From IMG/VR virus record IMGVR_UViG_3300035208_006730: a DNA stretch of 64,000 bases, one strand, 5' to 3'. The DNA is from a virus. Lineage: Duplodnaviria; Caudoviricetes. Both the position numbers and the translations under genes were made by a program. Position 1 is the stretch's first letter, and each line of letters begins with the position of its first letter. Below, piece after piece: positions 9,878 to 48,398 of this stretch. Under the pieces are notes generated by a model that was given only the letters and a program-made list of their open reading frames with translations, was not told the DNA's origin and made no database searches.

Positions 9878-12800
9878 TGGATATAAGTTTAATCGACATT
9901 CCTTCAATGGCTTCTCTGCCAGTCAAAAACGAAATTATAGATGGAAAAACTTTTACCTTTTTCCAAGATTGGTCTGATACAGCAAATTTTATTGCCAGAA
10001 CTCTCTATTTTACAAAAGAAGAAACAGACATTAGAAACTTTATCTGGCGTATTGCTAGAACCTTAGGTATAGCTGGAACAGAACATCGTTATTTTCATGA
10101 TGAGAGTGAACAGAATTTTACAGAAAATATTGCAAATATTATTGCGAATCAGATGGGTTGCTTCAATTCTCCTGTTCTAATTAATTTGGGAGTTAAAGAG
10201 AATGCAATCCTTTCAGCTTGTTTTCTACTCGATATCCAAGATAATATGGAATCAATTATTCAAGAACAAATTAATGAAATAAATATCTTTCGTGGAGGTG
10301 CAGGAGTTGGTGTCAATTTCTCAGCACTTCGAGGCGAAGGAGAGTATCTGACTAGAGGTGGTACATCCTCAGGACCATTATCTTTTTTAAAAGCAATGGA
10401 TACTTGGTCAGGAGTAATCAAAGCTGGAGGCAAATGTTTACATCCAGATCAATATATATACACAGAAAGTGGTCCAATTAAGGTAAAAGATTTAACTAAT
10501 AAACCAAATGGATTTATTTGTATATCCTATGATCCTCCAAGTAAAAGATTTAAGTTAAAAAGAGCTTTTGCTTATCCAAGTGGTAAAAAACAAATACTTA
10601 AAGTTATTACTGATAAAGGAGAGTTTCTTGTATCTGAAGATCACCCATTTAAGCTGAGTCACGGAGAAGCAATTTTAGCTAAAAACTTAAAAAAGGGTCA
10701 AAGTTTATTTGCCTGTTCTATTGATTTTAGTTCACAATATCTTCGTTTATCTCTTCATGATGGAAATAAAGGAAAAGAACATATTCACAGATTAGTTGCA
10801 AAAGATATCATGGGTCAGAATATAGAGAATAAAACCATTCACCATAAAGATAAAAATATTTATAATAATCAAGAGTCCAATTTAGAAATTATGAGTAGAT
10901 CTGAGCATTCAGCTCTTCATTCTAATGAGTCAGTAACTAATCAAACTCATGTATTTCAAACTGTTCAGTTTCCACATGATGCAGAAAATAATGGAATGCA
11001 TTCATCGTCAGCGTTTTGGACAGATACAGAAAAAGTTGAAAAATATAAACAAAAACAGAGCTTTATATTGAAAAAACGAGGAGATGCTGCTAAAATGCAG
11101 GATGCTTCTTGTAGGCAATTAATGATGAATCGAGCCTATTCACTGATTAATCAAGGATATAATATTGATACATTTGATCTTTACATAGAAGCTAGAAAAA
11201 AGATATGTAAAATTGGTTCTAAACGAGAAATATTAGAAGCAATAACTCGTAGATTTGGAAATTATGAAAATTTTATAACAGAAGTTTATTCAAATAATCA
11301 TAAAGTTATTTCAGTTCAATCTTTAGGTGAAGAAGAAACTTATTCTGTTGAAGTAACTTGTCCAACTTTAGATGATAAATCAATCCAATCAGGACATAAT
11401 TTTGTAATTTGGCCTAATGACTCAAAAGTTGGTAATGGTGTTGTTGTTTTTAATAGCCGCAGGGCCGCACGTCTCACTTCTCTCGATATCGATCATCCTG
11501 ATATTGAAAAATTTATCAACTGTAAAATTAAAGAAGATCAGATTTTTCGTCTTCTTTTAAAAGAAGGATTCTCAGGTGGTATTGAAGGTGAAGCTGCAAA
11601 ATCAATCTCTTTCCAAAATACAAATCTTACATGTAATCTAACCGATGATTTCATGAAAGCAGTAGAAGAAGATAGCTCCTGGGAACTAAAAGGAAGAGTT
11701 AATTCTCGAGTCAATCGAAAGGTTAAAGCTAAAGACCTTTTTCATCAGATAGCAGTAGCTGCTTGGACAGTTGGTGAAGGCGCAGTCTTTTTTGTTGATA
11801 CCGCAAATAAAAATAATCCATTCAAAGAAAGAATCATTGGAACTAACGCATGTCAACCAGGATGGGCAACTGTTTTTACTCCAGATGGAATTAAAACCTT
11901 TAATCAAATACGAATTGGCGAAATAATTTGGTCTGGTAGAAATTGGACCTATGTTATTAGAAAAGAGAGCCGTGGAATAAAAGAAGTTAGAGCCTATAGA
12001 ACATGTAAAGGAACTTTTTATGGAACAAGTGATCATCAAGTTGTTTCTCTTGGCAATAAAATAGAAGTCAGGAAAGTTCGTTGCATTGATATCAGTCCCA
12101 AACTTCCAGGATTAGAGAATTCTGAAGAAAATTTATCGTCTTATACAATTCTCAGTGATGATTTCATTAATGAAGAAGAAGTTTTTTATATTACAGTAGA
12201 TTGTCTAGAACATACCTACTGGACCGATGGTCTTCTTGTCTCAAATTGTGGTGAAGTTACTACACCTCCAAATAACGCCTGTTGTCTTGCTTCAGTTAAT
12301 CTTCAAAAAATGCCCAATACTTCTATCCTTAATGATATTGTCCAGAATCTAACTCTTGGTCTTGATATTATTGTAGAAATATCAGGTTATCCAACAGAAG
12401 AAATCAGAAGAAACAGTCTCTTGTATCGTCCTCTTGGACTGGGAGTTACTGGATTAGGAGCAATGCTGGCTCAACAAGGAATTGATTATGATTCAGTTGA
12501 AGCTCACAGACTTGTAACTGAAATCTTTCATGAAATAAATAAAACAGCATGGAAAACAAGTTTTGCGCTAGGGATAGAAATGGGAACTAATCTTGGAAAA
12601 TATTCACTTGGAAAAATGTATACCTTTTTACATGAAAAAGATCTTTATCCCGCTATGATGGATTGTATACCTCGTAACTGTTTTGTTACTTCTTGTCCTC
12701 CGATTGGTACGACTGGACTGATAATGGATGCAGAAAGTAGTGGAATTGAGCCAATCTATTCTGAACGGACAGTTAAAGAACTTTCTACAGGTGAAAAGAT

Positions 12801-38575: not shown

Positions 38576-39271
38576 CCCAAGAAGTAACATTGAGCTTTGG
38601 CGGAAGCTAAGATCAGATTGGGAGGCGCGCTGCAATACACAGTCCGAATGGAATGTTTCAATCAAGCCGACATTAATTTAATCCGTGCAGGTATCACAGA
38701 TGAAGAAGCCCAATGGGTTACTTTCACACACACATTTATAGAAGAAGAAAACATGCAAGAAATTAGGAAAAGACGAATATACACTGCTATATTTTTCCGC
38801 ATCACGAAACGCATTGTACCTCTATATGCGCAGACTATAGAGGATGCATGTAAAGAAGCAGATGATTTGCATCATAATGCAAAAATTTACGCAGGAGCAA
38901 TAGAATTTGCCCACAAAGAGAAAGGTCAATGGATAATAAATCAATGACAACTATAACTGAAGTTACAAATGGAATGCTAGCTATATTATCAAATAGACAA
39001 AATATAACGCTAAATAAACATATTAACGAACTTGAAGCAATGCTAGAACAACGGAATAAAGAAATAGAAGAGCTTTGGCAGTTAACTCATAAAGTTCAAA
39101 AAGAAAATCATTACGAAGAGATGAATAGGCTCAAAGATGAAAACATGGATCATCTTCTTGGATTAGGATCCAAACTTGGTTGTGCTCCTAATTGGCAAGT
39201 AATTTTTGAAGAAGTTCAACAACTTATAGATCGTTCTTTACTTCCCTACAATTTTCGATAAAGGAGATCAA

Positions 39272-40129
39272 ATGAAGTGTTTCTATCATTCAGCAGATTT
39301 TGACGGTAAATGTTCTGCGGCTCTTGTAAAACTAGTCTTTCCTCATGTCGAACTATTCCCAATTGATTACAATGAATCTTTTCCCTGGGATAAAATTCAA
39401 AATATTGAAGAAGGAATAGTTCAAGAACAAGTTTTCATGGTTGACTTTTCTTTGAAGCGGCCAGAAATGGAACGGCTGAATAACGAAACAGATTTAACTT
39501 GGATTGATCATCACGTTTCAGCAATAGAAGAGATGAAAGATCTTGACATCAAAGGAAAAAGAGATACTACAAGAGCTGCTTGTGAATTAGTTTCATTGTA
39601 TCTCCTAGGAAAGATTTTTTCAGCTGTTCAGCTTCTTGGAAGTTACGATGTGTGGCGCGATAAAGATCCTAATTGGAAATCTGGAATTCTCCCATTTCAG
39701 ATGGGATTGAGACTCTGGCAAACTGACCCAAGAAGTGATCTTGAGCTTTGGCGAAGGTTATGTCTTGAGGATGACGTAATCTTTATTGAGGAGATTATTC
39801 TTGCTGGAAAAAACATCTTACAATACCAAAACGATCAAAATAGAATCTATGCTCGAGTCTGTGCATTCGAAGTGAAATTTGAAGGTCTTCGAGGTATTGC
39901 AATTAATCGAGCTCTTTCTTCCTCTCAAATCTTTGATTCAGTTTGGGATCCAGAAAAATATGATTTAATGATTGCTTTTTCTCGCCTAAAAGATGGAAAA
40001 TGGAAGTACAGTCTGTACACAACTAAGGATGAAGTGGACTGTAGTGTGCTTGCAAAGAAATATGGTGGTGGCGGACATGTGAAAGCCGCCGGATTTAATC
40101 TCGATTATCTTTTCGAATCAATGGAGTGA
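39272..40129 (+). CDS. DHH/DHHA1 phosphoesterase (nanoRNase-like)
   Basis: YHSADFDG, MVDFS, WIDHH, YSLY, GGGGHVKAAGF. Confidence 0.93.
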   Translation: MKCFYHSADFDGKCSAALVKLVFPHVELFPIDYNESFPWDKIQNIEEGIVQEQVFMVDFSLKRPEMERLNNETDLTWIDHHVSAIEEMKDLDIKGKRDTTRAACELVSLYLLGKIFSAVQLLGSYDVWRDKDPNWKSGILPFQMGLRLWQTDPRSDLELWRRLCLEDDVIFIEEIILAGKNILQYQNDQNRIYARVCAFEVKFEGLRGIAINRALSSSQIFDSVWDPEKYDLMIAFSRLKDGKWKYSLYTTKDEVDCSVLAKKYGGGGHVKAAGFNLDYLFESME

Positions 40130-40443
40130 CAAATGCTTGAAGGTTTAGTTCTCGATATGGTTATTATTGACCATGAAAATTATTCTATTCAGTTTAAATC
40201 AAAGGATAAACATTTTAAATTATGCTTTGCTATTCCAGATTATCTAAAAGTCTCATTCTTTAAAATGGAAATAGTGGGAAGTTTTGCGAGTATTATCGGG
40301 CAAAAACTTGATGGACTTTTTCTAGAAGAAACCTTCGCAGATGACACACACTGTTGTTGGAAATATTCTCTTTTAGCTGAAAACGGTTTCGTTGATATTT
40401 TCTTTACTCAATTTCTTCAAGCTCCTACATTTGTGGAGATGTA

Positions 40444-41427
40444 ATGGATTTTGTTCACACCCACCTGCACACTGAGGCATCACTATTGGACGGTGCCATT
40501 CGTTGTAAGGATCTAGCTAAAAGAGTTAAGGAATTAGGCCAACCAGCAGTGGCAATAACTGATCACGGTAACATGGGTGGTGTCATCCAGCTCTACAAGG
40601 CATGTAAAGCTGAAGGAATTAAATCACTTTTAGGAATTGAATCTTACATAACTTTCGATCCAAATGGAGTAGATAATAAAGAAAAACATCGAGATAGCTT
40701 TCATCTTATCCTTCTGGCAAAAAACTATCTTGGTTTTCAGGATCTAATGAGACTTTCTACTCGAGCTAATGAGGTCAATTTCTATTACCATCCTAGAATC
40801 TTCATTGATGATCTTGAAGCTGCTGCACCAAATCTTGTTTGTACTACAGCTTGTCTTGGTGGTATTCTCGCAAAGCCTCTCCTGAAATTTAATAAAGAAG
40901 AGTATGCAATAGCTAATTTTGACAAGCTTCATTCTTGGTTTGGGAAGGATTTGTACGCCGAAATTCAAAAAAATACCGAGCCAAAACAACAATTTTACAA
41001 TGAATGGCTAATACCCCAGGCGAAGAAACGAAATATTAAAGTAGTAATTTCCACAGACGCTCATTATCTAGTTCAAGAAGACTATCAATTACATCGAATG
41101 ATTCTTGCTCTCCAGTTCAAGAAAACTCTTGAAGATTATGATCGTCAACAAGAAATGCATTATGGTCCAGATTATTGGATTAAGCCTTCAGACCTAATGT
41201 GGAGAGCTGCAGATATGTGCGGTGCTCCTGAGGCTGCAGAAAATACTCTGGAGATTGCAGAAAAATGCAACGTAGAGATCGAACTTGGTAAACTAAAAAT
41301 GCCTTCTTTCGATATTCAAAAAGCAGAAGACTATGGAGAATTTCTCAAATGGAAGAATACAATCGTGGAGAAATCATTACCGAATATGTCGTCGGATGTG
41401 GCCGTTGTTCTCAATGGGATATCTTGA
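40444..41427 (+). CDS. dnaE: DNA polymerase III alpha N-terminal PHP domain encoded as a separate gene
   Basis: FVHTHLHTEASLLDGA, AITDHGN, GIESY, HLILLAKN, TACLGG, STDAHY, NTLEIAEKCNVEI...MPSF. Confidence 0.93.
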   Translation: MDFVHTHLHTEASLLDGAIRCKDLAKRVKELGQPAVAITDHGNMGGVIQLYKACKAEGIKSLLGIESYITFDPNGVDNKEKHRDSFHLILLAKNYLGFQDLMRLSTRANEVNFYYHPRIFIDDLEAAAPNLVCTTACLGGILAKPLLKFNKEEYAIANFDKLHSWFGKDLYAEIQKNTEPKQQFYNEWLIPQAKKRNIKVVISTDAHYLVQEDYQLHRMILALQFKKTLEDYDRQQEMHYGPDYWIKPSDLMWRAADMCGAPEAAENTLEIAEKCNVEIELGKLKMPSFDIQKAEDYGEFLKWKNTIVEKSLPNMSSDVAVVLNGIS

Positions 41428-41594
41428 AAGCTAGAACTAAAAAGGCCGCAATTAAAGAAACAAAAGATCTTGGTTATCGAAAAATACTTCCAAGTCCAAA
41501 AGGAAATATTTGGCTTTGCGAAGGATGTATTAAAGAGATAATTAGACAGATGGAGGAAGAAAATGAATCAACAGATTCTACAGAAATTAGCTAA
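41349..41594 (+). CDS. zinc-finger hypothetical protein between the dnaE halves
   Basis: CGRC...CEGC; ATG lies inside the first repeat, GGAG upstream. Confidence 0.65.
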   Translation: MEEYNRGEIITEYVVGCGRCSQWDILKARTKKAAIKETKDLGYRKILPSPKGNIWLCEGCIKEIIRQMEEENESTDSTEIS

Positions 41595-41952
41595 ACAAAA
41601 AGAAAAACATCAAGAAAAAGAAGCTATTCTTAAAGACTGGGTATCCAATGTAGAAAAATTTAGAGAATGGATTCGAAATGAAATCAAACCTTATAAAGAA
41701 TATCTTTCAATGACTGATGATCGTTTTTGTGCGAATGGAGTATTTTCAATTAGGAATAACTATAACGAAAAAGTTTCATGTACTTATCAAGATACTTCTT
41801 TAATATTCGATGGTTATATCCTTGCTCTTAAAAGCCATGGTTGGATTTTTAAAAAGACAGATACCAATCTGAAAGAAGAAATAGAAATAGTATTTAACAC
41901 TCATGAACTCGAAGAAATTATCGAGAGAAAACTTTGCAAGGAGCCAAAATGA
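41563..41952 (+). CDS. hypothetical protein between the dnaE halves
   Basis: GGAGG RBS, 129-aa ORF. Confidence 0.6.
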   Translation: MNQQILQKLAKQKEKHQEKEAILKDWVSNVEKFREWIRNEIKPYKEYLSMTDDRFCANGVFSIRNNYNEKVSCTYQDTSLIFDGYILALKSHGWIFKKTDTNLKEEIEIVFNTHELEEIIERKLCKEPK

Positions 41953-42020
41953 ATCAGGAACTATTCTATGCTTAAATCACAACAAGAAAAAGTAACAAAC
42001 AAAGATAACAAAAAAAGCTA

Positions 42021-42320
42021 ATGAAGATTATGGACATCAAAGAATTCCGTTCTATTGGACTTCTTCAAGAAATCAATCGTCAATTTCTTCATCCTATGGG
42101 ACTTGCTCTCATAGTTGAAATAGATGACTCAGGATTAGAAAGCCTTTCTGGAATCCAAGATTATCGAGATGATCCTGAAGGAATGGCCTATCTAGACGAA
42201 ATGCTAGTACAGCCAGAGTCAATTCAAAAAGCAGATGATGTATCCAAACTTTTCGAAGCTAAAAGAGAATATCGAGAAAAGAATCTTGGCTGGCATGTTC
42301 AACTAATAGGAAAGAAATGA
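42021..42320 (+). CDS. hypothetical protein between the dnaE halves
   Basis: GLLQEINRQFLHPMGLAL..DYRDDPEG; ATGA overlap with the catalytic dnaE gene. Confidence 0.7.
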   Translation: MKIMDIKEFRSIGLLQEINRQFLHPMGLALIVEIDDSGLESLSGIQDYRDDPEGMAYLDEMLVQPESIQKADDVSKLFEAKREYREKNLGWHVQLIGKK

Positions 42321-45300
42321 AGACTAATTTAGAACTCTATTTCGAATGGAAGTGCTTCGAGGGATTAAAAGCTCGAGGACTAGATAACGAACAGTATCGA
42401 AAACAATTAAATTACGAAATAGAGATCATCGAACAAAAAGGATTTCCAGGATACTTCTTGGTTGTCCAGGATCTTTTCAACTGGACAAGAAGAAACGATA
42501 TCTACTTTGGACCAGGTCGAGGTAGTGTTGTTGGATCTTTAATTGCCTACTGTCTTGGAATCACAAACTTAGATCCAATCAAATACGGATTAATCTTCGA
42601 AAGATTTATTAATCCAGGACGTATGAGTCCTCCAGATATAGATATGGATTTTGAGAAGTCTCGTCGAGAAGATGTCGTTAAATATGTTTCTGATAAATAT
42701 GGAAAGAACTGTGTTTCAGGAATCGGGACTATCGGAACAATGAAAGCTAAGCAGGCTATTCAAAGAGTCTGCAAAGTTCTTGGTTATTCTCTTGAAACTG
42801 GTCTTGAGATTCGTCGATTACTTCTACCTCCAAAAGCTGGTAAACCAACTCCACTCAAAGATTCAATCGAAGCGGTTCCAGAACTACAATTAGAACTAGA
42901 TGCTAAATCTCCAAAAGGAGAGATTCTTAAATGGGCATTGAAATTTGAAGACCGTATTAGTCAAAAGGGTGCTCATGCATGTTTTACTGGAGATTCATTA
43001 TTATGGACAGATCAAGGGCAAAAAGAAATAAAATCTCTTGTAGGACAAGAAGTAATTATTGCAACCTCAGATGGCTGGAAAAGAGGAACCGTTATAGACT
43101 CTGGTTTAAGGCAAATCTGTCAAATGACATGGAGTTATTCCAAATTTTCAAGTAGAAAAAGAACCACCAATCTTACTTTAGATCAATTAATTAAAATAGA
43201 TGACGGATGGATTAAAGCAAAAAATTCAATTAACTCTATTCTTAGTTTATCTCCAATGCAAAATTTAGATCTAATAGATGAACTCGCTGGTTGGTTTTGG
43301 AATGATGGAGGATATCGACTTAACGTTGGAATAATCTGTTTTAATACTAAAAAGGATTATGAAGCACAAATCCGATTTAGTTCATTATTGAATTCACAAC
43401 ATAAAGGAGCTCCACATAAATTTAATTTACCAATAAGAATTATACACGAGATTGAAAAAAGATTTAAAAATGGATTTAAGAATCTTAGACATGTAAAGGG
43501 ATGTCCAGAATTTAATAGTTTATCTTCAAAAATTGCTTGGCTTCGAGGAATGTTTTCTGCAAATGCTACAGTTCAACGCGGAAGTATCCGACTTAAATTA
43601 ACGTCTAAAGCTCTTTGTCAATTTATTCGAGATGAAGTTGATTCTCTAGGATTTACTTGTTCTCATTTATCTGAATGTCATTCTTCTCCTATCATTAAGG
43701 GAAAAAAAGTAAATAGTAGACCTTCATTCCAGTTTGAAATGTCAACTCAATCTGCATGGAATTTTGCTAATTTAATTGGATTTATACAGTCTTATAAACA
43801 GAAGAAAATTCTATCTCAAAAAATTCAGAAGATAGAAATAAAAGATATTCAACCTACCTATGATTTTTCAATTATAGATGAACAAGATTTCAATCTTCAA
43901 AATGGATATATAAACGGTATTTTAGTTCATAATAGCGGGATAATCATCACAGATCATCCAATCTCTGAAACAGCGCCACTACAAAGAGCTAAAGGCGATC
44001 AATTTGTTTCTCAATGGGATATGGGAACAATAGAAGAGGTGGGTCTTGTTAAATTTGATTTCCTAGGTTTGAAAACTCTCGATAAGATGCATTATGCAAT
44101 TGATATTATTCGAGAGAGAACTGGAAAACAAATTGACATTAACTCTATTTCTCCAGATGATCCCAAGGTATTTGACTTTATTCAAAAGGGTCAGCTTCTT
44201 GGAATCTTTCAGTTAGAAGGTTCGCAAGGAATTACAGATCTTTCTGTCAAAGTAAAACCTAAATGTCTAGAAGATCTATCAGCAATCCTAGCAATATTTC
44301 GACCTGGTCCTCTCCAAAGTTCGGGAATGCAAGATTATCTTCATTGGCGAGCAGGTGCTTCTGGTGTTTTTCTTATTCCAGAATTTGAAGAAATTCTGAA
44401 AGAAACTGGAGGCTTTATTATCTATCAAGAGCAAGTTCTTGAAATAGCTAGAAAGCTAGCAAAGTATAATTATACTGAGGCTGATAACTTTAGAAGATGT
44501 GTTGACGGAGAAACACTTTTTAATACGAAAGATGGATTACGAAAGATAAGTTGGCTAGCTGAAAATTCTAAAAAACCAGAAATTCTAACTCTCTCTAACT
44601 ATGAGTACAAATATAATCAGGCAAGAACAGTTTTCAGTTCAGGCTTTAAAGATACCATAAAGGTCATAACTGATAGTGGAACTGAATTAATATGTACTCC
44701 AGATCATAGAGTCTTTACTAATTATGGCTGGATGGAGGCTAAAGATTTAAATAGTGACTGTTTCTTACTCCACTGTATCGAAGAAAACTTCGGTTCATTT
44801 AAAATTGAAGAAGATATTCTTTTTCTCATAATAGCTCTTATCACGGAGGGATATTGTCCAGAAGAAAAGAATAGTTGGTACTTTTGTAACTCTAATGAAT
44901 TTTATATTAAAAAATTTTCTGATATATGTTCTCGTTTTTTAGGCTTTATTCCTAATCAATGGAAACAAAATAATACTTATTATGTTTCTGTTCCATTAAT
45001 TCTGCGAAATTTTTTAGAGCTTCATGGATTAATTCCGGGACTATCAAGAACAAAAAAACTTCCACAAGACTTTCTTAGACTTACAAGAGAACTTACCTTA
45101 AAAATGTTAGGATGGCTAATTGATTTTGATGGATATGTAGCCTTCAATGTAGATGGTTCACATGAGATGGGATATTCTTCGCGTTCAAAAGAGTTGGCTA
45201 AACAAATAAAGATAATAATGGAAAATTGTGGATTACGAAGTCTCTTTTCTAAAACGAATGTGAAGAATGAACCTCAATATCTTGCAAGTATTCGTGATAT

Positions 45301-47107
45301 AAAAGATTTAAAGATTATTGTAAATCTTCTTATTCCTTATAGTATAAAATGTAAAGATATTTCATTTCGAGAGCAACGAGAAAGTTTTACTTGTCATAAC
45401 GTTCCCCATAATATATGGTTCCCAATTATAGAAAATTTAATCAACAATTCAGGATTCTCGAGAAATAATATACTTTCAGGAGAAAGTGGTAGATATTTTT
45501 CTAAGTCGATAACAAAAGTAACTCTTAAGAAAATGCTTTCAGTTTGTGGAAGATCAAAAGCTCTTGAATTTTATTGTGGAGATAATAATTATTGGGATCG
45601 AGTTAGATCTATAAAAGATAATGGTAAAATCCAGGTTTTTGACTTTACAATGTCTTCTGAGGTAACTCCATGTGCATTTGGCAATAATCTTCTTATTCAT
45701 AATTCAATCGGCAAAAAAAAAGTAGATATTATCAAAAAAGAATATGAAAAGTTTCAAAGAGGTTGGTTGTCATCTAGTCTTGCCCAGGAAAAGTTAGATA
45801 TTTTCTGGGCGCAACTACTTGGATTTGCTGACTATCTTTTTAATAAGAGCCATTCTATGGCTTATGGATTTCTTAGTTATCAAACTGCCTATCTAAAAAC
45901 CTATTTCCCAGTAGAGTTTCTTACCGCCTGTATGATTCAAGATGCAACTGACTTAAATCAGATGACAAAATATCTTGGTGAATGTAAACGTATGGGAATT
46001 AGGGTATTGCCGCCCGATATTAATCGAAGTTCAGAAGACTTTATTATCACAGATCAGAACGAAATACAGTTCGGTCTTCTGCCAATCAAAGGAATTGGAG
46101 TTGGAACTGTTAAAGAGATTATGTCTAAGCGTAGGTCAGGCAGACCATACAAGGATATTCAAGATTTTTGTGATCGAGTTAATCTTTCTAAAGTAAACCG
46201 GAAACATCTAGAAGCTTTAGTTAATGGTGGAGCATTTGATTTTTCTGGCCAGACTCGAGCATCTCTAATCAACTGGATTGATCGATATTGGGCTTGGATG
46301 GATCTCAATGATTCCTATCAAAAGAAGATGGAGACTTTTTCTAAAAGAGTTATTGCCTTCGAAGAAAGAGAAAAATTAATCCAGGAAGCTCAAATAAAAC
46401 TTGCCGCTCTACTGGAAACCCCAGGTGTAACTAAAGAACAGTTAAAAGAAGCGAAAGCTTTTGCTCGAAAGCCTAAGCTAAAAAAACCAGAACGACCAGA
46501 AATAATTGAAACGCCTTCAATGATCTATTGTCCAGAACAACGAGCAGACCTATTACGTCTCGAGCATGAGCTTCTCGGATTCTTCGTTTCAGGCCATCCT
46601 CTCGAAAAGTTTCCTATTGCTGAGGAAGGCATTGACGCTATTGATACTTTGAAAGATTCATCTGATGGATTTATGACTAAAATTAGATGTGTCCCTATTC
46701 TTGTCAAGGATCATGTAACTAAAGCCAAAAAAGAAAAGATGGTCTTTGTTGAGCTAGAGGATCAGACTGGACGCATTGAAGGCGTAATGTTTCCAAAGGC
46801 CTATTCAAAATATGGTAAGCTTTTGCAACCTCTCACTCCTTGTATTGTAACTGTCAGAGTAGAAATAGTAGAGAATGAAGATGAAGAAGGAGAAGGATCT
46901 ACTAGAATAGCAAAGATACAGATTCAAAAAGTAGAAACATTAGACACTGGAGCATCAATGAAAAAGATTTCAGTTACACCTGCAAAGCTAGAAAATGTTA
47001 ACCTCATTCAATACGGAGAAGCAGTCAATCTCGAGATCAATTTTCTTTCTGGACTCGTAATTGAATTGGTCAAACCTGTGAGAGTGGAGTATGAAAAAGC
47101 TAATTGA
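42317..47107 (+). CDS. dnaE: DNA polymerase III alpha catalytic portion (palm/fingers/HhH/OB) with two inteins
   Basis: GPGRGS, FERFINPGR..PDIDMDF, KFDFLGLKTL, GIFQLE, IIYQEQV, FNKSHS, LPPDIN, LGFFVSGHPL, LEDQTG. Confidence 0.97.
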   Translation: MKTNLELYFEWKCFEGLKARGLDNEQYRKQLNYEIEIIEQKGFPGYFLVVQDLFNWTRRNDIYFGPGRGSVVGSLIAYCLGITNLDPIKYGLIFERFINPGRMSPPDIDMDFEKSRREDVVKYVSDKYGKNCVSGIGTIGTMKAKQAIQRVCKVLGYSLETGLEIRRLLLPPKAGKPTPLKDSIEAVPELQLELDAKSPKGEILKWALKFEDRISQKGAHACFTGDSLLWTDQGQKEIKSLVGQEVIIATSDGWKRGTVIDSGLRQICQMTWSYSKFSSRKRTTNLTLDQLIKIDDGWIKAKNSINSILSLSPMQNLDLIDELAGWFWNDGGYRLNVGIICFNTKKDYEAQIRFSSLLNSQHKGAPHKFNLPIRIIHEIEKRFKNGFKNLRHVKGCPEFNSLSSKIAWLRGMFSANATVQRGSIRLKLTSKALCQFIRDEVDSLGFTCSHLSECHSSPIIKGKKVNSRPSFQFEMSTQSAWNFANLIGFIQSYKQKKILSQKIQKIEIKDIQPTYDFSIIDEQDFNLQNGYINGILVHNSGIIITDHPISETAPLQRAKGDQFVSQWDMGTIEEVGLVKFDFLGLKTLDKMHYAIDIIRERTGKQIDINSISPDDPKVFDFIQKGQLLGIFQLEGSQGITDLSVKVKPKCLEDLSAILAIFRPGPLQSSGMQDYLHWRAGASGVFLIPEFEEILKETGGFIIYQEQVLEIARKLAKYNYTEADNFRRCVDGETLFNTKDGLRKISWLAENSKKPEILTLSNYEYKYNQARTVFSSGFKDTIKVITDSGTELICTPDHRVFTNYGWMEAKDLNSDCFLLHCIEENFGSFKIEEDILFLIIALITEGYCPEEKNSWYFCNSNEFYIKKFSDICSRFLGFIPNQWKQNNTYYVSVPLILRNFLELHGLIPGLSRTKKLPQDFLRLTRELTLKMLGWLIDFDGYVAFNVDGSHEMGYSSRSKELAKQIKIIMENCGLRSLFSKTNVKNEPQYLASIRDIKDLKIIVNLLIPYSIKCKDISFREQRESFTCHNVPHNIWFPIIENLINNSGFSRNNILSGESGRYFSKSITKVTLKKMLSVCGRSKALEFYCGDNNYWDRVRSIKDNGKIQVFDFTMSSEVTPCAFGNNLLIHNSIGKKKVDIIKKEYEKFQRGWLSSSLAQEKLDIFWAQLLGFADYLFNKSHSMAYGFLSYQTAYLKTYFPVEFLTACMIQDATDLNQMTKYLGECKRMGIRVLPPDINRSSEDFIITDQNEIQFGLLPIKGIGVGTVKEIMSKRRSGRPYKDIQDFCDRVNLSKVNRKHLEALVNGGAFDFSGQTRASLINWIDRYWAWMDLNDSYQKKMETFSKRVIAFEEREKLIQEAQIKLAALLETPGVTKEQLKEAKAFARKPKLKKPERPEIIETPSMIYCPEQRADLLRLEHELLGFFVSGHPLEKFPIAEEGIDAIDTLKDSSDGFMTKIRCVPILVKDHVTKAKKEKMVFVELEDQTGRIEGVMFPKAYSKYGKLLQPLTPCIVTVRVEIVENEDEEGEGSTRIAKIQIQKVETLDTGASMKKISVTPAKLENVNLIQYGEAVNLEINFLSGLVIELVKPVRVEYEKAN
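42980..43933 (+). mobile_element. intein 1 in DnaE (318 aa, LAGLIDADG-type endonuclease)
   Basis: GAHA|CFTGDS...ILVHN|SGII; LAGWFWNDG and WLRGMFSAN blocks. Confidence 0.92.
44498..45703 (+). mobile_element. intein 2 in DnaE (402 aa, LAGLIDADG-type endonuclease)
   Basis: DNFRR|CVDGET...TPDHRV...LLIHN|SIGKK; IALITEG and LGWLIDFDG blocks. Confidence 0.93.
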
Positions 47108-47203
47108 TGTTATCGGAATTCTTGGCATTTTAATGGTTGTCGGTTGTTTGACTGTTCCTGTTCCTGCCATTTCTCCTCTCTTACTTATTGCCTTTATTAT
47201 CTA

Positions 47204-47233
47204 TTGCGTAGGAAAGAGAAAGTAGGATATAAT
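47204..47233 (+). promoter_or_regulatory. candidate sigma70 promoter
   Basis: TTGCGT-18 nt-TATAAT followed by GGGAGG RBS and ATG 47256. Confidence 0.55.
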
Positions 47234-47255
47234 AAGGGCTAATAAGGGAGGTTTC

Positions 47256-48398
47256 ATGGACATACACCCATGGTCTGATAGAGAAAAGTATCTATTTCTG
47301 GCACTACGACGTTCATTGGGATCAAAAGAAATATTTGATATTTTTAAAGCTCTTGGATATGAACGTAGTTATGTCTCAATAAGAAAATTTGCGCAACGAC
47401 AAGGCCGAATAGAAAAAGGTCCAATCATTGGAGAATTCTCTAGAGAAGAACGAGATGCTATTGAAGATGTGATTGGAAAAGAAAAGTTTGAGTTCTATTT
47501 CCAGAAAGGCATTAGCCTTTTGCCTCCTAAAAAAGATTCTCTTTCTGAAACTCTTTCTCTCATTAATGAACATGCTTCAAAGGTTAAGATCTGTCCAATC
47601 AAAAAGCAATCAATTAGTGGAGAACAAGTTGTTGTCTGTCTTTCGGACATTCATTATGGGTCTACTGTCAGAGATCCTCAAACTGGTGAAGAAATTTACA
47701 ATCAGACCATTGCTCTAAAAAGATTAACTGATCTTCCAAGTCGACTAATAGGCTGTATTCCTCAACGAAAATATGCTGGAGTAACAATAGTCCTTGCCGG
47801 AGATATTGTTGATGGAGAGGATATCTATCCCACTCATTCTAGGCATTCTACCATTCCTGTTATTGATCAAGTTAAAGATCTTGTGGAAGCTCTTTGGATT
47901 AATATCTGTTCTCTGAATCGGATATTTCCAAATGTTAGAGTTGTTTGTGTAGCAGGAAATCATGGTCGAGGTGGCGATAGATTTGATGAAAGAAGTAATT
48001 GGGACAATGTTGTTTATCAACAGTTATTGCTTCTTTCTCGAATGCAAATTGATGTGAATGTCCAGGTTCAAGTATCCTTTGGTTCCTCATTTAATTTCGA
48101 TGTTAATGGCTGGACAGGCCATGTTCGACACTATGGAGTACGTCACGACGGAACTGCAGGTATGGAACAAAAAATGGGTGGCTGGCTAGCCGAACATTCG
48201 TTCGATTTTCTAATCTGTGGCCATTTCCATACTGCAGGAATTCTTACCTATAACGGACGGTATATCTTTAGGAACGGTGCAGTAATGCCTCCAAATGATC
48301 TTGCTGATAGAATGGCAAAATCAGATATTCCTCGTCAAATAGTTTTTGGAGTTTCAGAAGAAACACTTCCAACCTTTGTGGGATTTCTTACATGGTAA
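47256..48398 (+). CDS. metallophosphoesterase/nuclease with N-terminal helical (HTH-like) domain
   Basis: LSDIHYG, AGDIVDG, AGNHGR, CGHFH, NGA motifs. Confidence 0.85.
   Translation: MDIHPWSDREKYLFLALRRSLGSKEIFDIFKALGYERSYVSIRKFAQRQGRIEKGPIIGEFSREERDAIEDVIGKEKFEFYFQKGISLLPPKKDSLSETLSLINEHASKVKICPIKKQSISGEQVVVCLSDIHYGSTVRDPQTGEEIYNQTIALKRLTDLPSRLIGCIPQRKYAGVTIVLAGDIVDGEDIYPTHSRHSTIPVIDQVKDLVEALWINICSLNRIFPNVRVVCVAGNHGRGGDRFDERSNWDNVVYQQLLLLSRMQIDVNVQVQVSFGSSFNFDVNGWTGHVRHYGVRHDGTAGMEQKMGGWLAEHSFDFLICGHFHTAGILTYNGRYIFRNGAVMPPNDLADRMAKSDIPRQIVFGVSEETLPTFVGFLTW

Follow-up and report, generated by a model that had tools for sequence, protein, structure and literature searches.

A phage DnaE-type DNA polymerase divided at the PHP/palm boundary, very probably by an ancient fission into two subunits

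In the E. coli Pol III core, the alpha subunit and a separate epsilon proofreader are docked polypeptides. Bypass in T4 gene 60 uses matched take-off and landing codons; a stop follows right after the take-off codon and the non-coding gap is about 50 nt. In phage Aeh1, nrdA is reportedly split by the free-standing endonuclease gene mobE, a case that Friedrich et al. are said to have described in 2007 as 'genes in pieces'. Divided replicases have also been described. Microbacterium cluster EF phages have a two-gene DNA polymerase III alpha, for which the split position is not given (PMC7302621). In group 2.2 jumbo phages, a minimal Pol III alpha is split into stand-alone proteins, and their reassembly is presumed (Iyer et al. 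2021, PMC7824862). The cyanobacterial dnaE gene is split in two and joined by a split intein (Caspi et al. 2003, cited in PMC3919608).

In the window, which is the whole 64-kb stretch of phage DNA analyzed here, the ORF list shows a DnaE-type polymerase coded by two ORFs, one PHP-only (40444-41427) and one for the polymerase (42317-47107). The two ORFs are separated by three small genes, and no single polypeptide at the locus carries all DnaE domains. The sequence-only reading had described a split DnaE of this layout, and its statements on the sequence were borne out. The features of the locus are as follows.

40444..41427, + strand: PHP subunit gene, 327 aa; N-terminal PHP domain of DnaE-type Pol III alpha
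41314..41355, + strand: junction helix copy 1, IQKAEDYGEFLKWK, PHP residues 291-304; DYxEFLxW motif
41348..41355, + strand: left copy of AATGGAAG, read as aA-TGG-AAG
41349..41594, + strand: small zinc-ribbon gene, 81 aa; CxxC...WLCxxC, acidic tail
41563..41952, + strand: cargo ORF2, 129 aa; no recognisable family
42021..42320, + strand: cargo ORF3, 99 aa; phrog_3954 (unknown function), 8.8e-13
42317..47107, + strand: polymerase subunit precursor gene, 1596 aa; mature length would be 876 aa
42317..42352, + strand: junction helix copy 2, MKTNLELYFEWK, then CFEGL
42345..42352, + strand: right copy of AATGGAAG, read as gAA-TGG-AAG
42980..43933, + strand: intein 1, 318 aa; GAHA/CFTGDS...LVHN/SGIII
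44498..45703, + strand: intein 2, 402 aa; NFRR/CVDGET...LIHN/SIGKKK; LAGLIDADG domain

The PHP and polymerase ORFs are in differing frames, each with its own start and stop, and their homologous parts are 962 bp apart. From 39272 to 47107 every gene is co-oriented. The first two junctions and the last one in this region are start-on-stop (TAATG, ATGA), including the start of the PHP gene on the stop of its upstream gene (TAATG) and the start of the polymerase gene on the stop of ORF3 (ATGA); the next two junctions have overlaps of 79 and 32 nt, and a single gap measures 68 nt. Such an arrangement is consistent with coupled translation. In promoter and terminator scans, the counts were at or below shuffle expectation.

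The PHP gene product matches Pfam PHP at 4.5e-40 and phrog_405 DNA polymerase at 4.6e-79; its best solved-structure match is residues 6-310 of Thermus aquaticus Pol III alpha. All nine PHP metal-ligand positions (H7, H9, D16, H41, E66, H87, C137, D205 and H207) carry conserved residues, as judged from the clade alignment and the solved-structure match, and these are invariant or nearly so across the clade. The PHP subunit is probably a metal-dependent exonuclease that proofreads in the 3'-5' direction. The protein ends in ...MPSFDIQKAEDYGEFLKWK, followed by unrelated residues, as had been noted earlier; however, the tail counts 23 residues and not 24. Among PHP-only relatives, the tail past W-K is not conserved.

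The polymerase gene begins with MKTNLELYFEWKCFEGLKARGL. Its product contains palm/NTPase, fingers, HhH and OB in DnaE order, interrupted by the two inteins; the Pfam matches are DNA_pol3_alpha (2.8e-75), DNA_pol3_finger, HHH_6, tRNA_anti-codon and Intein_splicing. The polymerase half is 46% identical to the intein-free, 871-aa half of the relative L001. Intein 1 is an insertion relative to L001 and L005; it has Cys1 and HN/S ends and is low in G+C. Intein 2 matches Pfam Intein_splicing (1.7e-13) and LAGLIDADG_3, and its boundaries were set by comparison with relatives. Homing-endonuclease-family genes also occur in relatives, elsewhere in the polymerase half.

The PHP tail and the polymerase head of the window both align onto one helix of fused DnaE, with W303 in register with W11 in six of the nine overlapping fused-DnaE alignments. 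TGG-AAG is present in both copies, at 41350-41355 and 42347-42352, 997 bp apart. Excision of 997 bp (1 mod 3) would bring both halves into one frame with the normal LPxF-to-CxEGL spacing; the joined DNA string would run across TTTCTCAAATGGAAGTGCTTC and the junction peptide would be EFLKWKCFEGLK (...EFLKWKCFEGL...). The sequence-only reading had pointed to this repeat on both W-K codons and to the frame restored by its deletion, and the coordinates agree. By itself, however, the AATGGAAG repeat is at chance level: seven copies of the 8-mer lie in the window where 5.0 are expected, and shuffling yields at least seven in 24 of 100 cases. What lies above chance, as judged from the alignments, is duplication of the junction helix at the protein level; the 8-bp repeat is the same two conserved codons (Trp-Lys) in both helix copies and nothing more. 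In relatives, no more than 5-8 nt are common to the helix copies, for the most part out of register, and EW(K/Q/R) is paired with E/R/Q-F/Y-(K/R). No in-register DNA repeat between the helix copies is conserved across relatives; an in-register 8-bp identity is found in the window and in L005, at different positions. A third helix copy was also considered, in the form of a 17-nt near-repeat (16/17) between 41314-41330 (IQKAED) and 42222-42238 in the C-terminal part of ORF3 (IQKADD). It is probably due to chance, because an equally good in-frame A-rich repeat (D7) occurs and the segment lies inside the phrog_3954 match.

The loci of relatives were collected by an alignment-based scan of IMG/VR; a single-protein pattern scan gave no match. 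About 34 PHP-only proteins (290-347 aa) score 361-238 bits against the PHP half of the window, and the best full-length DnaE scores 237. All 22 PHP-only relatives that were aligned end 2-25 residues after the DYxEFLxW helix. The PHP half is 40-54% identical across the clade and consistently precedes the polymerase half, with both genes pointing the same way. In ten loci (nine distinct relatives), a separate ORF encodes the polymerase half and opens with its own helix copy, and the head motif xLxxYF.[FWY][KR]C is kept in every one. The gap between HSPs is 0 bp in L007, 29 bp in L009/L010 and 47 bp in L011; in the remaining split loci it is 480-1881 bp, with differing cargo. Even where the halves are adjacent (0-47 bp), they are still two ORFs in different frames. 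The two helix copies of L007 are offset by 32 nt. The sequence-only reading had pointed to relatives as the place to find an intact dnaE or other cargo; none of the close relatives has an unsplit dnaE site, and all have different cargo, or none, at the same split residue. Among more distant loci with both parts, 67 of 67 are fused, and L045 is split at another site. In a quick tree, the split group forms one clade with long internal branches and an SH-aLRT support of 100, which applies to the whole split group, inside which the branching lacks resolution.

We also co-folded the two chains, as the sequence-only reading had proposed, using the halves of L001, a relative 47-50% identical to the window. 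The ipSAE was 0.77, against 0.00 for the best control; the mark is one reached by 58 of 80 solved complexes and by two of 110 mismatched pairs. The L001 runs share at least 97% of their contacts, the partner pLDDT is at least 89, and both helix copies lie within the interface. This model supports docking of the two halves, but the pass may reflect memory, because intact single-chain DnaE structures, which the model resembles, have already been solved.

The locus is thus very probably the product of an ancient fission into a stable two-subunit polymerase, in which the gap later collected cargo and nothing rejoins. Fission with a duplicated helix was also the first option of the sequence-only reading, and it gains strong support from the clade-wide split, the helix copies, the separate starts and stops, and the L001 co-fold. 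We propose a single, old split of dnaE in the common ancestor of a clade made up of large uncultured phages, at the helix joining the PHP domain to the palm. This linking helix, of about 11-12 codons, would have become duplicated, so that one copy was retained in each half. The slot between the halves would have gained and lost small genes later, an order of events that we infer; in the window, its cargo would be one zinc-ribbon gene common to one sub-group plus two unrelated ORFs. The two gene products are predicted to dock non-covalently as PHP subunit and polymerase subunit, and the polymerase subunit would additionally have to splice out its two inteins.

The zinc-ribbon gene starts within the left repeat, as had been stated for the first intervening gene: its ATG is formed by the final A of AAA together with the TG of the conserved Trp codon in the PHP gene. 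Homologues in L001, L002 and L005/L012 are at the same position and start on the same Trp codon, and in the P0127 contig a homologue overlaps the end of the PHP gene. The family comprises 737 cluster representatives at E<=1e-3; Pfam searched at E<=1 gave no family for the protein or its relatives. That the zinc-ribbon protein is a third, translationally coupled component of the split replicase, such as an adaptor between PHP and polymerase or to another replisome protein, is unlikely. If it were one, the gap would serve specifically to house accessory genes of the polymerase and would not be a random landing site. The relative L085 has a gene context without dnaE, and therefore the family is not polymerase-specific. 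ORF2 has no Pfam or PHROG match and no counterpart in relatives. ORF3 is absent from the PHP/polymerase gaps of relatives, and an Atlas search with it returned only unnamed clusters and weak structural matches.

The PHP gene could instead be a decaying or repurposed remnant, with the polymerase half working alone or with a host factor. For this speak the unconserved tail after W-K and the E. coli PHP domain, which has lost catalytic residues and plays a mainly structural part (PMC3666897). We consider it very improbable, since the PHP half is maintained at 40-54% identity with its metal-ligand positions, in every case precedes the polymerase half and is co-oriented with it, and is placed in a confident interface by the L001 co-fold.

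Equally poor is the standing of a model in which dnaE was intact until three genes recently inserted as a cassette and duplicated AATGGAAG as their target site, leaving halves that either still function or no longer do. An exact 8-bp direct repeat does flank the interval, the first cargo gene does begin in the left copy, and the G+C of ORF2 (about 30%) is below that of its surroundings. However, all close relatives are split at the same residue with other cargo or none, and therefore the 8 bp is not a fresh target-site duplication; on this ground, the second option of the sequence-only reading is contradicted. The duplication moreover amounts to about 12 codons at the protein level and not to 8 bp, the 8-mer occurs in the window about as often as chance predicts, and the zinc-ribbon gene at the left edge is common to lineages with PHP halves just 45-50% identical. 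Searches of the three gap ORFs against Pfam and PHROGs found no intein, transposase, integrase or other recombinase, and no nuclease (no HNH, GIY-YIG or LAGLIDADG).

An Rfam scan of 39000-48000 at E<=1 gave no match, and no group I/II intron structure was recognisable there. Neither the 23-aa PHP tail nor the polymerase head contains a split-intein half, the Intein_splicing matches being confined to the internal inserts; trans-splicing at the PHP/polymerase junction is therefore not expected. The absence of a split-intein motif at the junction, and of a recombinase or transposase in the insert, had been seen from the letters and agrees with Pfam and PHROGs. A -1 frameshift joining PHP to the downstream frame was considered as well, and CTC-AAA-TGG-AAG contains no slippery heptamer. 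Active rejoining into a single-chain DnaE, whether through excision of DNA, splicing of RNA or a ribosomal bypass from one TGG-AAG to the matching one, the last option of the sequence-only reading, is extremely unlikely: the in-frame junction with normal spacing left by removal of 997 bp and the resemblance of the codons to the T4 gene 60 take-off/landing pair stand in its favor, but the matched codons are absent in relatives, the would-be take-off codon is not followed by a stop (AAT comes after AAG, and the PHP frame stays open for 23 codons), the 997-nt gap holds three ORFs with the zinc-ribbon one conserved in relatives, no Rfam intron, split-intein motif or recombinase was found, and the members with adjacent halves stay two ORFs in different frames.

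Under the two-subunit reading, a full-length replicase of bacterial type tolerates a cut between PHP and palm that is stable over long evolutionary time. The locus would offer a naturally separated PHP nuclease and polymerase core, with which PHP proofreading and the structural contribution of the PHP domain can be studied. It would also illustrate clearly how gene fission can proceed via a duplicated junction helix, and how the resulting gene boundary goes on to gather cargo. When such phages are annotated, their PHP-only genes should not be treated as pseudogenes, and comparative support is needed before short in-frame junction repeats are taken for recoding or excision sites.

Like the E. 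coli Pol III core, the window is predicted to have polymerase and proofreading nuclease as separate docking polypeptides; different from it, the separate nuclease would be the PHP domain and not a DnaQ-family protein. Compared to T4 gene 60, the window shares only the matched codons (TGG-AAG, in the window only): it has no stop after take-off, and its gap is 997 nt with three ORFs. As reported for Aeh1 nrdA/mobE, an essential replication-related gene is interrupted by ORFs and each piece has its own translation signals; reassembly without splicing, reported there, is predicted for the window. However, the window gap has no recognisable homing endonuclease, and the split is fixed clade-wide, even in insert-free members. 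Like cyanobacterial split DnaE, dnaE is in two pieces and inteins occur within the same gene, but the two inteins of the window are contiguous and located elsewhere, in the polymerase half. As in the group 2.2 jumbo phages, the Pol III alpha catalytic machinery is divided among separate proteins. There, the cut is inside a minimal catalytic module without PHP, the genes are widely separated and the phages also have a family B polymerase (PMC7824862), whereas in the window a full-length DnaE is cut between PHP and palm, its halves are neighbours and the helix is duplicated. Like the Microbacterium cluster EF phages, the window has DNA polymerase III alpha from two genes; the best cultured-phage matches of its PHP half are less than 40% identical, and the window therefore represents a lineage other than these phages.

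The split dnaE of the window lies in a gene run (39272-47107) in which, according to the ORF listing and the raw sequence, all genes are co-oriented and closely packed:

39272-40129, DHH/DHHA1 protein
40133-40444, 103-aa ORF
40444-41427, PHP-only protein of 327 aa (Pfam PHP), the PHP half
41349-41594, 81-aa ORF, first gap gene, zinc ribbon
41563-41952, 129-aa ORF, second gap ORF
42021-42320, 99-aa ORF, third gap ORF
42317-47107, 1596-aa protein (Pfam DNA_pol3_alpha, DNA_pol3_finger, HHH_6, OB fold, Intein_splicing/LAGLIDADG), the polymerase half

The start-on-stop overlaps TAATG (40442-40446) and ATGA (42317-42320) fit coupled translation. No Pfam family was found for the three gap ORFs; the third has a match to phrog_3954 (function unknown). 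Inteins aside, G+C in the operon is lowest in the 129-aa gap ORF (~30%), which lacks a counterpart in all relatives and is likely the newest acquisition. Upstream of the PHP gene, with the 103-aa ORF in between, the DHH/DHHA1 phosphoesterase gene has weak Pfam matches just below the cut-offs and could encode a replication-module nuclease of the RecJ or nanoRNase type.

Searching with the PHP half returned ~34 PHP-only proteins of 290-347 aa (361-238 bits, 40-54% identity), which outscore every protein also bearing polymerase domains; the best full-length DnaE among longer proteins reaches only 237 bits. All 22 PHP-only proteins aligned stop 2-25 residues past DYxEFLxW, whereas fused DnaE, with both parts in one ORF, run on into CxEGL. 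No cultured phage with >40% identity to the PHP half was found. From the contigs of three PHP-only relatives and an alignment-based scan of IMG/VR we collected 84 loci, scored as split or fused by tblastn and an ORF script. At the loci at least 40% identical to the window PHP half (L001-L013) the polymerase part is always a separate ORF, and the intact dnaE looked for among relatives is present in none; fusion is seen at 67 of 67 more distant loci that have both parts, and L045 is split at another position. The split loci group as a single clade (SH-aLRT 100) in a quick maximum-likelihood tree, with terminal branches of 0.3-0.8 changes per site. Sharing of the split by L001-L013 within this single clade argues that it is old and inherited, not acquired by the window's genome. 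L045 (9001-13315) is of an unrelated lineage; its PHP ORF, ending ...FRREWLDW, is overlapped by a polymerase ORF in a different frame, and its split is independent.

In 10 of 10 loci (nine distinct relatives), the PHP half terminates DYxEFLxW(K/Q/R) and the polymerase half starts xLxxYF.[FWY][KR]C(W/F/Y/x)xGL. In alignments with fused DnaE, which has a single copy, the end of the window's PHP half and the beginning of its polymerase half fall on one stretch; ~11-12 codons of the junction helix occur twice, and W303 of the PHP half coincides exactly with W11 of the polymerase half in 6 of 9 overlapping cases. Because both window ends align to the same stretch, the LPxF-to-CxEGL spacing of intact DnaE, as given in the sequence-only reading, is borne out. 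That reading ranked first a stable fission in which the junction helix was duplicated; the clade shares this layout, each half having its own helix copy, and the first choice is strongly supported.

Relatives carry different cargo at the same point, with gaps of 0-1881 bp and differing or no content.

Gap size (distance between HSPs) and content at the split loci
L007, 0 bp, no content
L009/L010, 29 bp, no content
L011, 47 bp, no content
L008, 480 bp, one 187-aa ORF
L004, 633 bp, 98/86 aa + 113 aa
L006/L013, 1517 bp, four ORFs
L001, 1127 bp, zinc ribbon + 104 aa + Metallophos
L002, 1627 bp, zinc ribbon + 159 aa + Metallophos + 108 aa
L005/L012, 1881 bp, zinc ribbon + Metallophos + 171 aa + 113 aa
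Window, 962 bp, zinc ribbon + 129 aa + 99 aa

The Metallophos-type phosphoesterase (~185 aa) is conserved in L001 (5357-5914), L002 (10666-11226) and L005 (10256-10807) and absent from the window gap; a small HExxH protein is also present in the gaps of L002 and L005.

The two halves of L007 overlap (9940-10000), with an offset of 32 nt between the helix copies; the sole possible start of the polymerase half is the GTG from cag-TGG on the PHP gene's Trp codon. Fission could have arisen via a short out-of-frame tandem duplication, whose expected remnant the L007 layout resembles; this layout may be the primordial state. Alternatively, insertion of a cassette may have split the gene, with the cassette disappearing afterwards from part of the lineages, a history compatible with the tree, in which branching inside the split clade is poorly resolved.

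The 8-mer AATGGAAG lies on Trp-Lys codons in both helix copies, at 41348-41355 (K-W-K) and 42345-42352 (E-W-K), 997 bp apart, and deletion of that interval would bring the two frames together, as first read. With 7 occurrences in the window against 5.0 expected, it is unremarkable as a DNA repeat and notable for its placement only. Helix copies in relatives have only 5-8 nt in common, in most cases out of register; L005 shows an 8-mer that is in register but elsewhere in the helix, on D-L codons. AATGGAAG was therefore rejected as a conserved site for recombination, splicing or ribosome landing; it represents residual or convergent codon identity inside paralogous helices. A 17-nt direct repeat (16/17 identical) links 41314-41330 (IQKAED, PHP helix start) and 42222-42238 (IQKADD, towards the C-terminal end of the 99-aa gap ORF) and is in frame at both places. 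It is probably chance, being A-rich and equalled by a repeat elsewhere, and could be the trace of a longer junction duplication.

No Rfam family matched 39-48 kb of the window at E<=1. Pfam and PHROGs found no intein halves flanking the break and no recognisable recombinase, transposase or homing endonuclease in the gap ORFs. No stop follows the putative take-off codon, and the three gap ORFs, one conserved in relatives, count against rejoining. Active rejoining by excision, splicing or bypass, suggested by the title of the sequence-only reading, is not supported: there is no conserved matched DNA site or splicing signal, and relatives with practically no gap still have two ORFs in different frames.

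The PHP half keeps 9 of 9 positions aligned with the metal-binding residues of PHP domains (H7, H9, D16, H41, E66, H87, C137, D205, H207); they vary little or not at all across the clade and align to Thermus aquaticus Pol III alpha. By analogy to those DnaE1 enzymes whose PHP domain is described as proofreading (bioRxiv 10.1101/2023.10.24.563508), the PHP half probably has 3'-5' exonuclease activity. The proposed co-fold of the halves was done with the L001 PHP protein and residues 1-640 of its polymerase half, and gave an ipSAE of 0.77 versus 0.00 for the best control, passing a mark that 58 of 80 solved complexes and 2 of 110 mismatched pairs attain. Runs had at least 97% of contacts in common, and partner pLDDT was at least 89. 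The interface includes both helix copies. The model indicates likeness to DnaE, not proof of binding, and may draw on memory, since single-chain DnaE structures are solved.

The zinc-ribbon ORF shares 29-42% identity with the first gap genes of L001, L002 and L005; CxxC...W.CxxC is invariant in the alignment, followed by an acidic tail. Each start (ATG or GTG) combines the preceding codon's last base with TG from the conserved Trp codon. Another member, P0127, occupies the same place in a further contig and overlaps the PHP gene end. A profile search returned 737 cluster representatives, mostly 55-90 aa; one relative sits in a context without dnaE, and no Pfam family was found for the protein or its relatives. 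This small protein is widespread in phages, so a polymerase accessory role is only a possibility.

Alignment against intein-free relatives placed two inteins in the polymerase half, leaving a predicted mature protein of 876 aa:

42980-43933, intein 1, 318 aa, C...HN/S; HA/xG palm motif
44498-45703, intein 2, 402 aa, C...HN/S, LAGLIDADG domain; RR/xxGKK

Both have ~30% G+C, below the exteins (~37%). In L004 (10563-14458) a LAGLIDADG-like 282-aa gene separates 562-aa and 451-aa pieces of the polymerase half, and in the P0127 contig a 141-aa piece is followed by an HNH gene; both endonuclease genes are free-standing. Selfish elements frequently target the dnaE of the split clade.

No description of a PHP/palm split with a duplicated helix was found in the literature. 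Split-intein DnaE is known from cyanobacteria, as cited in PMC3919608, and for phages of Microbacterium cluster EF there is a mention of Pol III alpha from two genes (PMC7302621). Different from the window, group 2.2 jumbo phages have a minimal Pol III alpha that is split in another way (PMC7824862).
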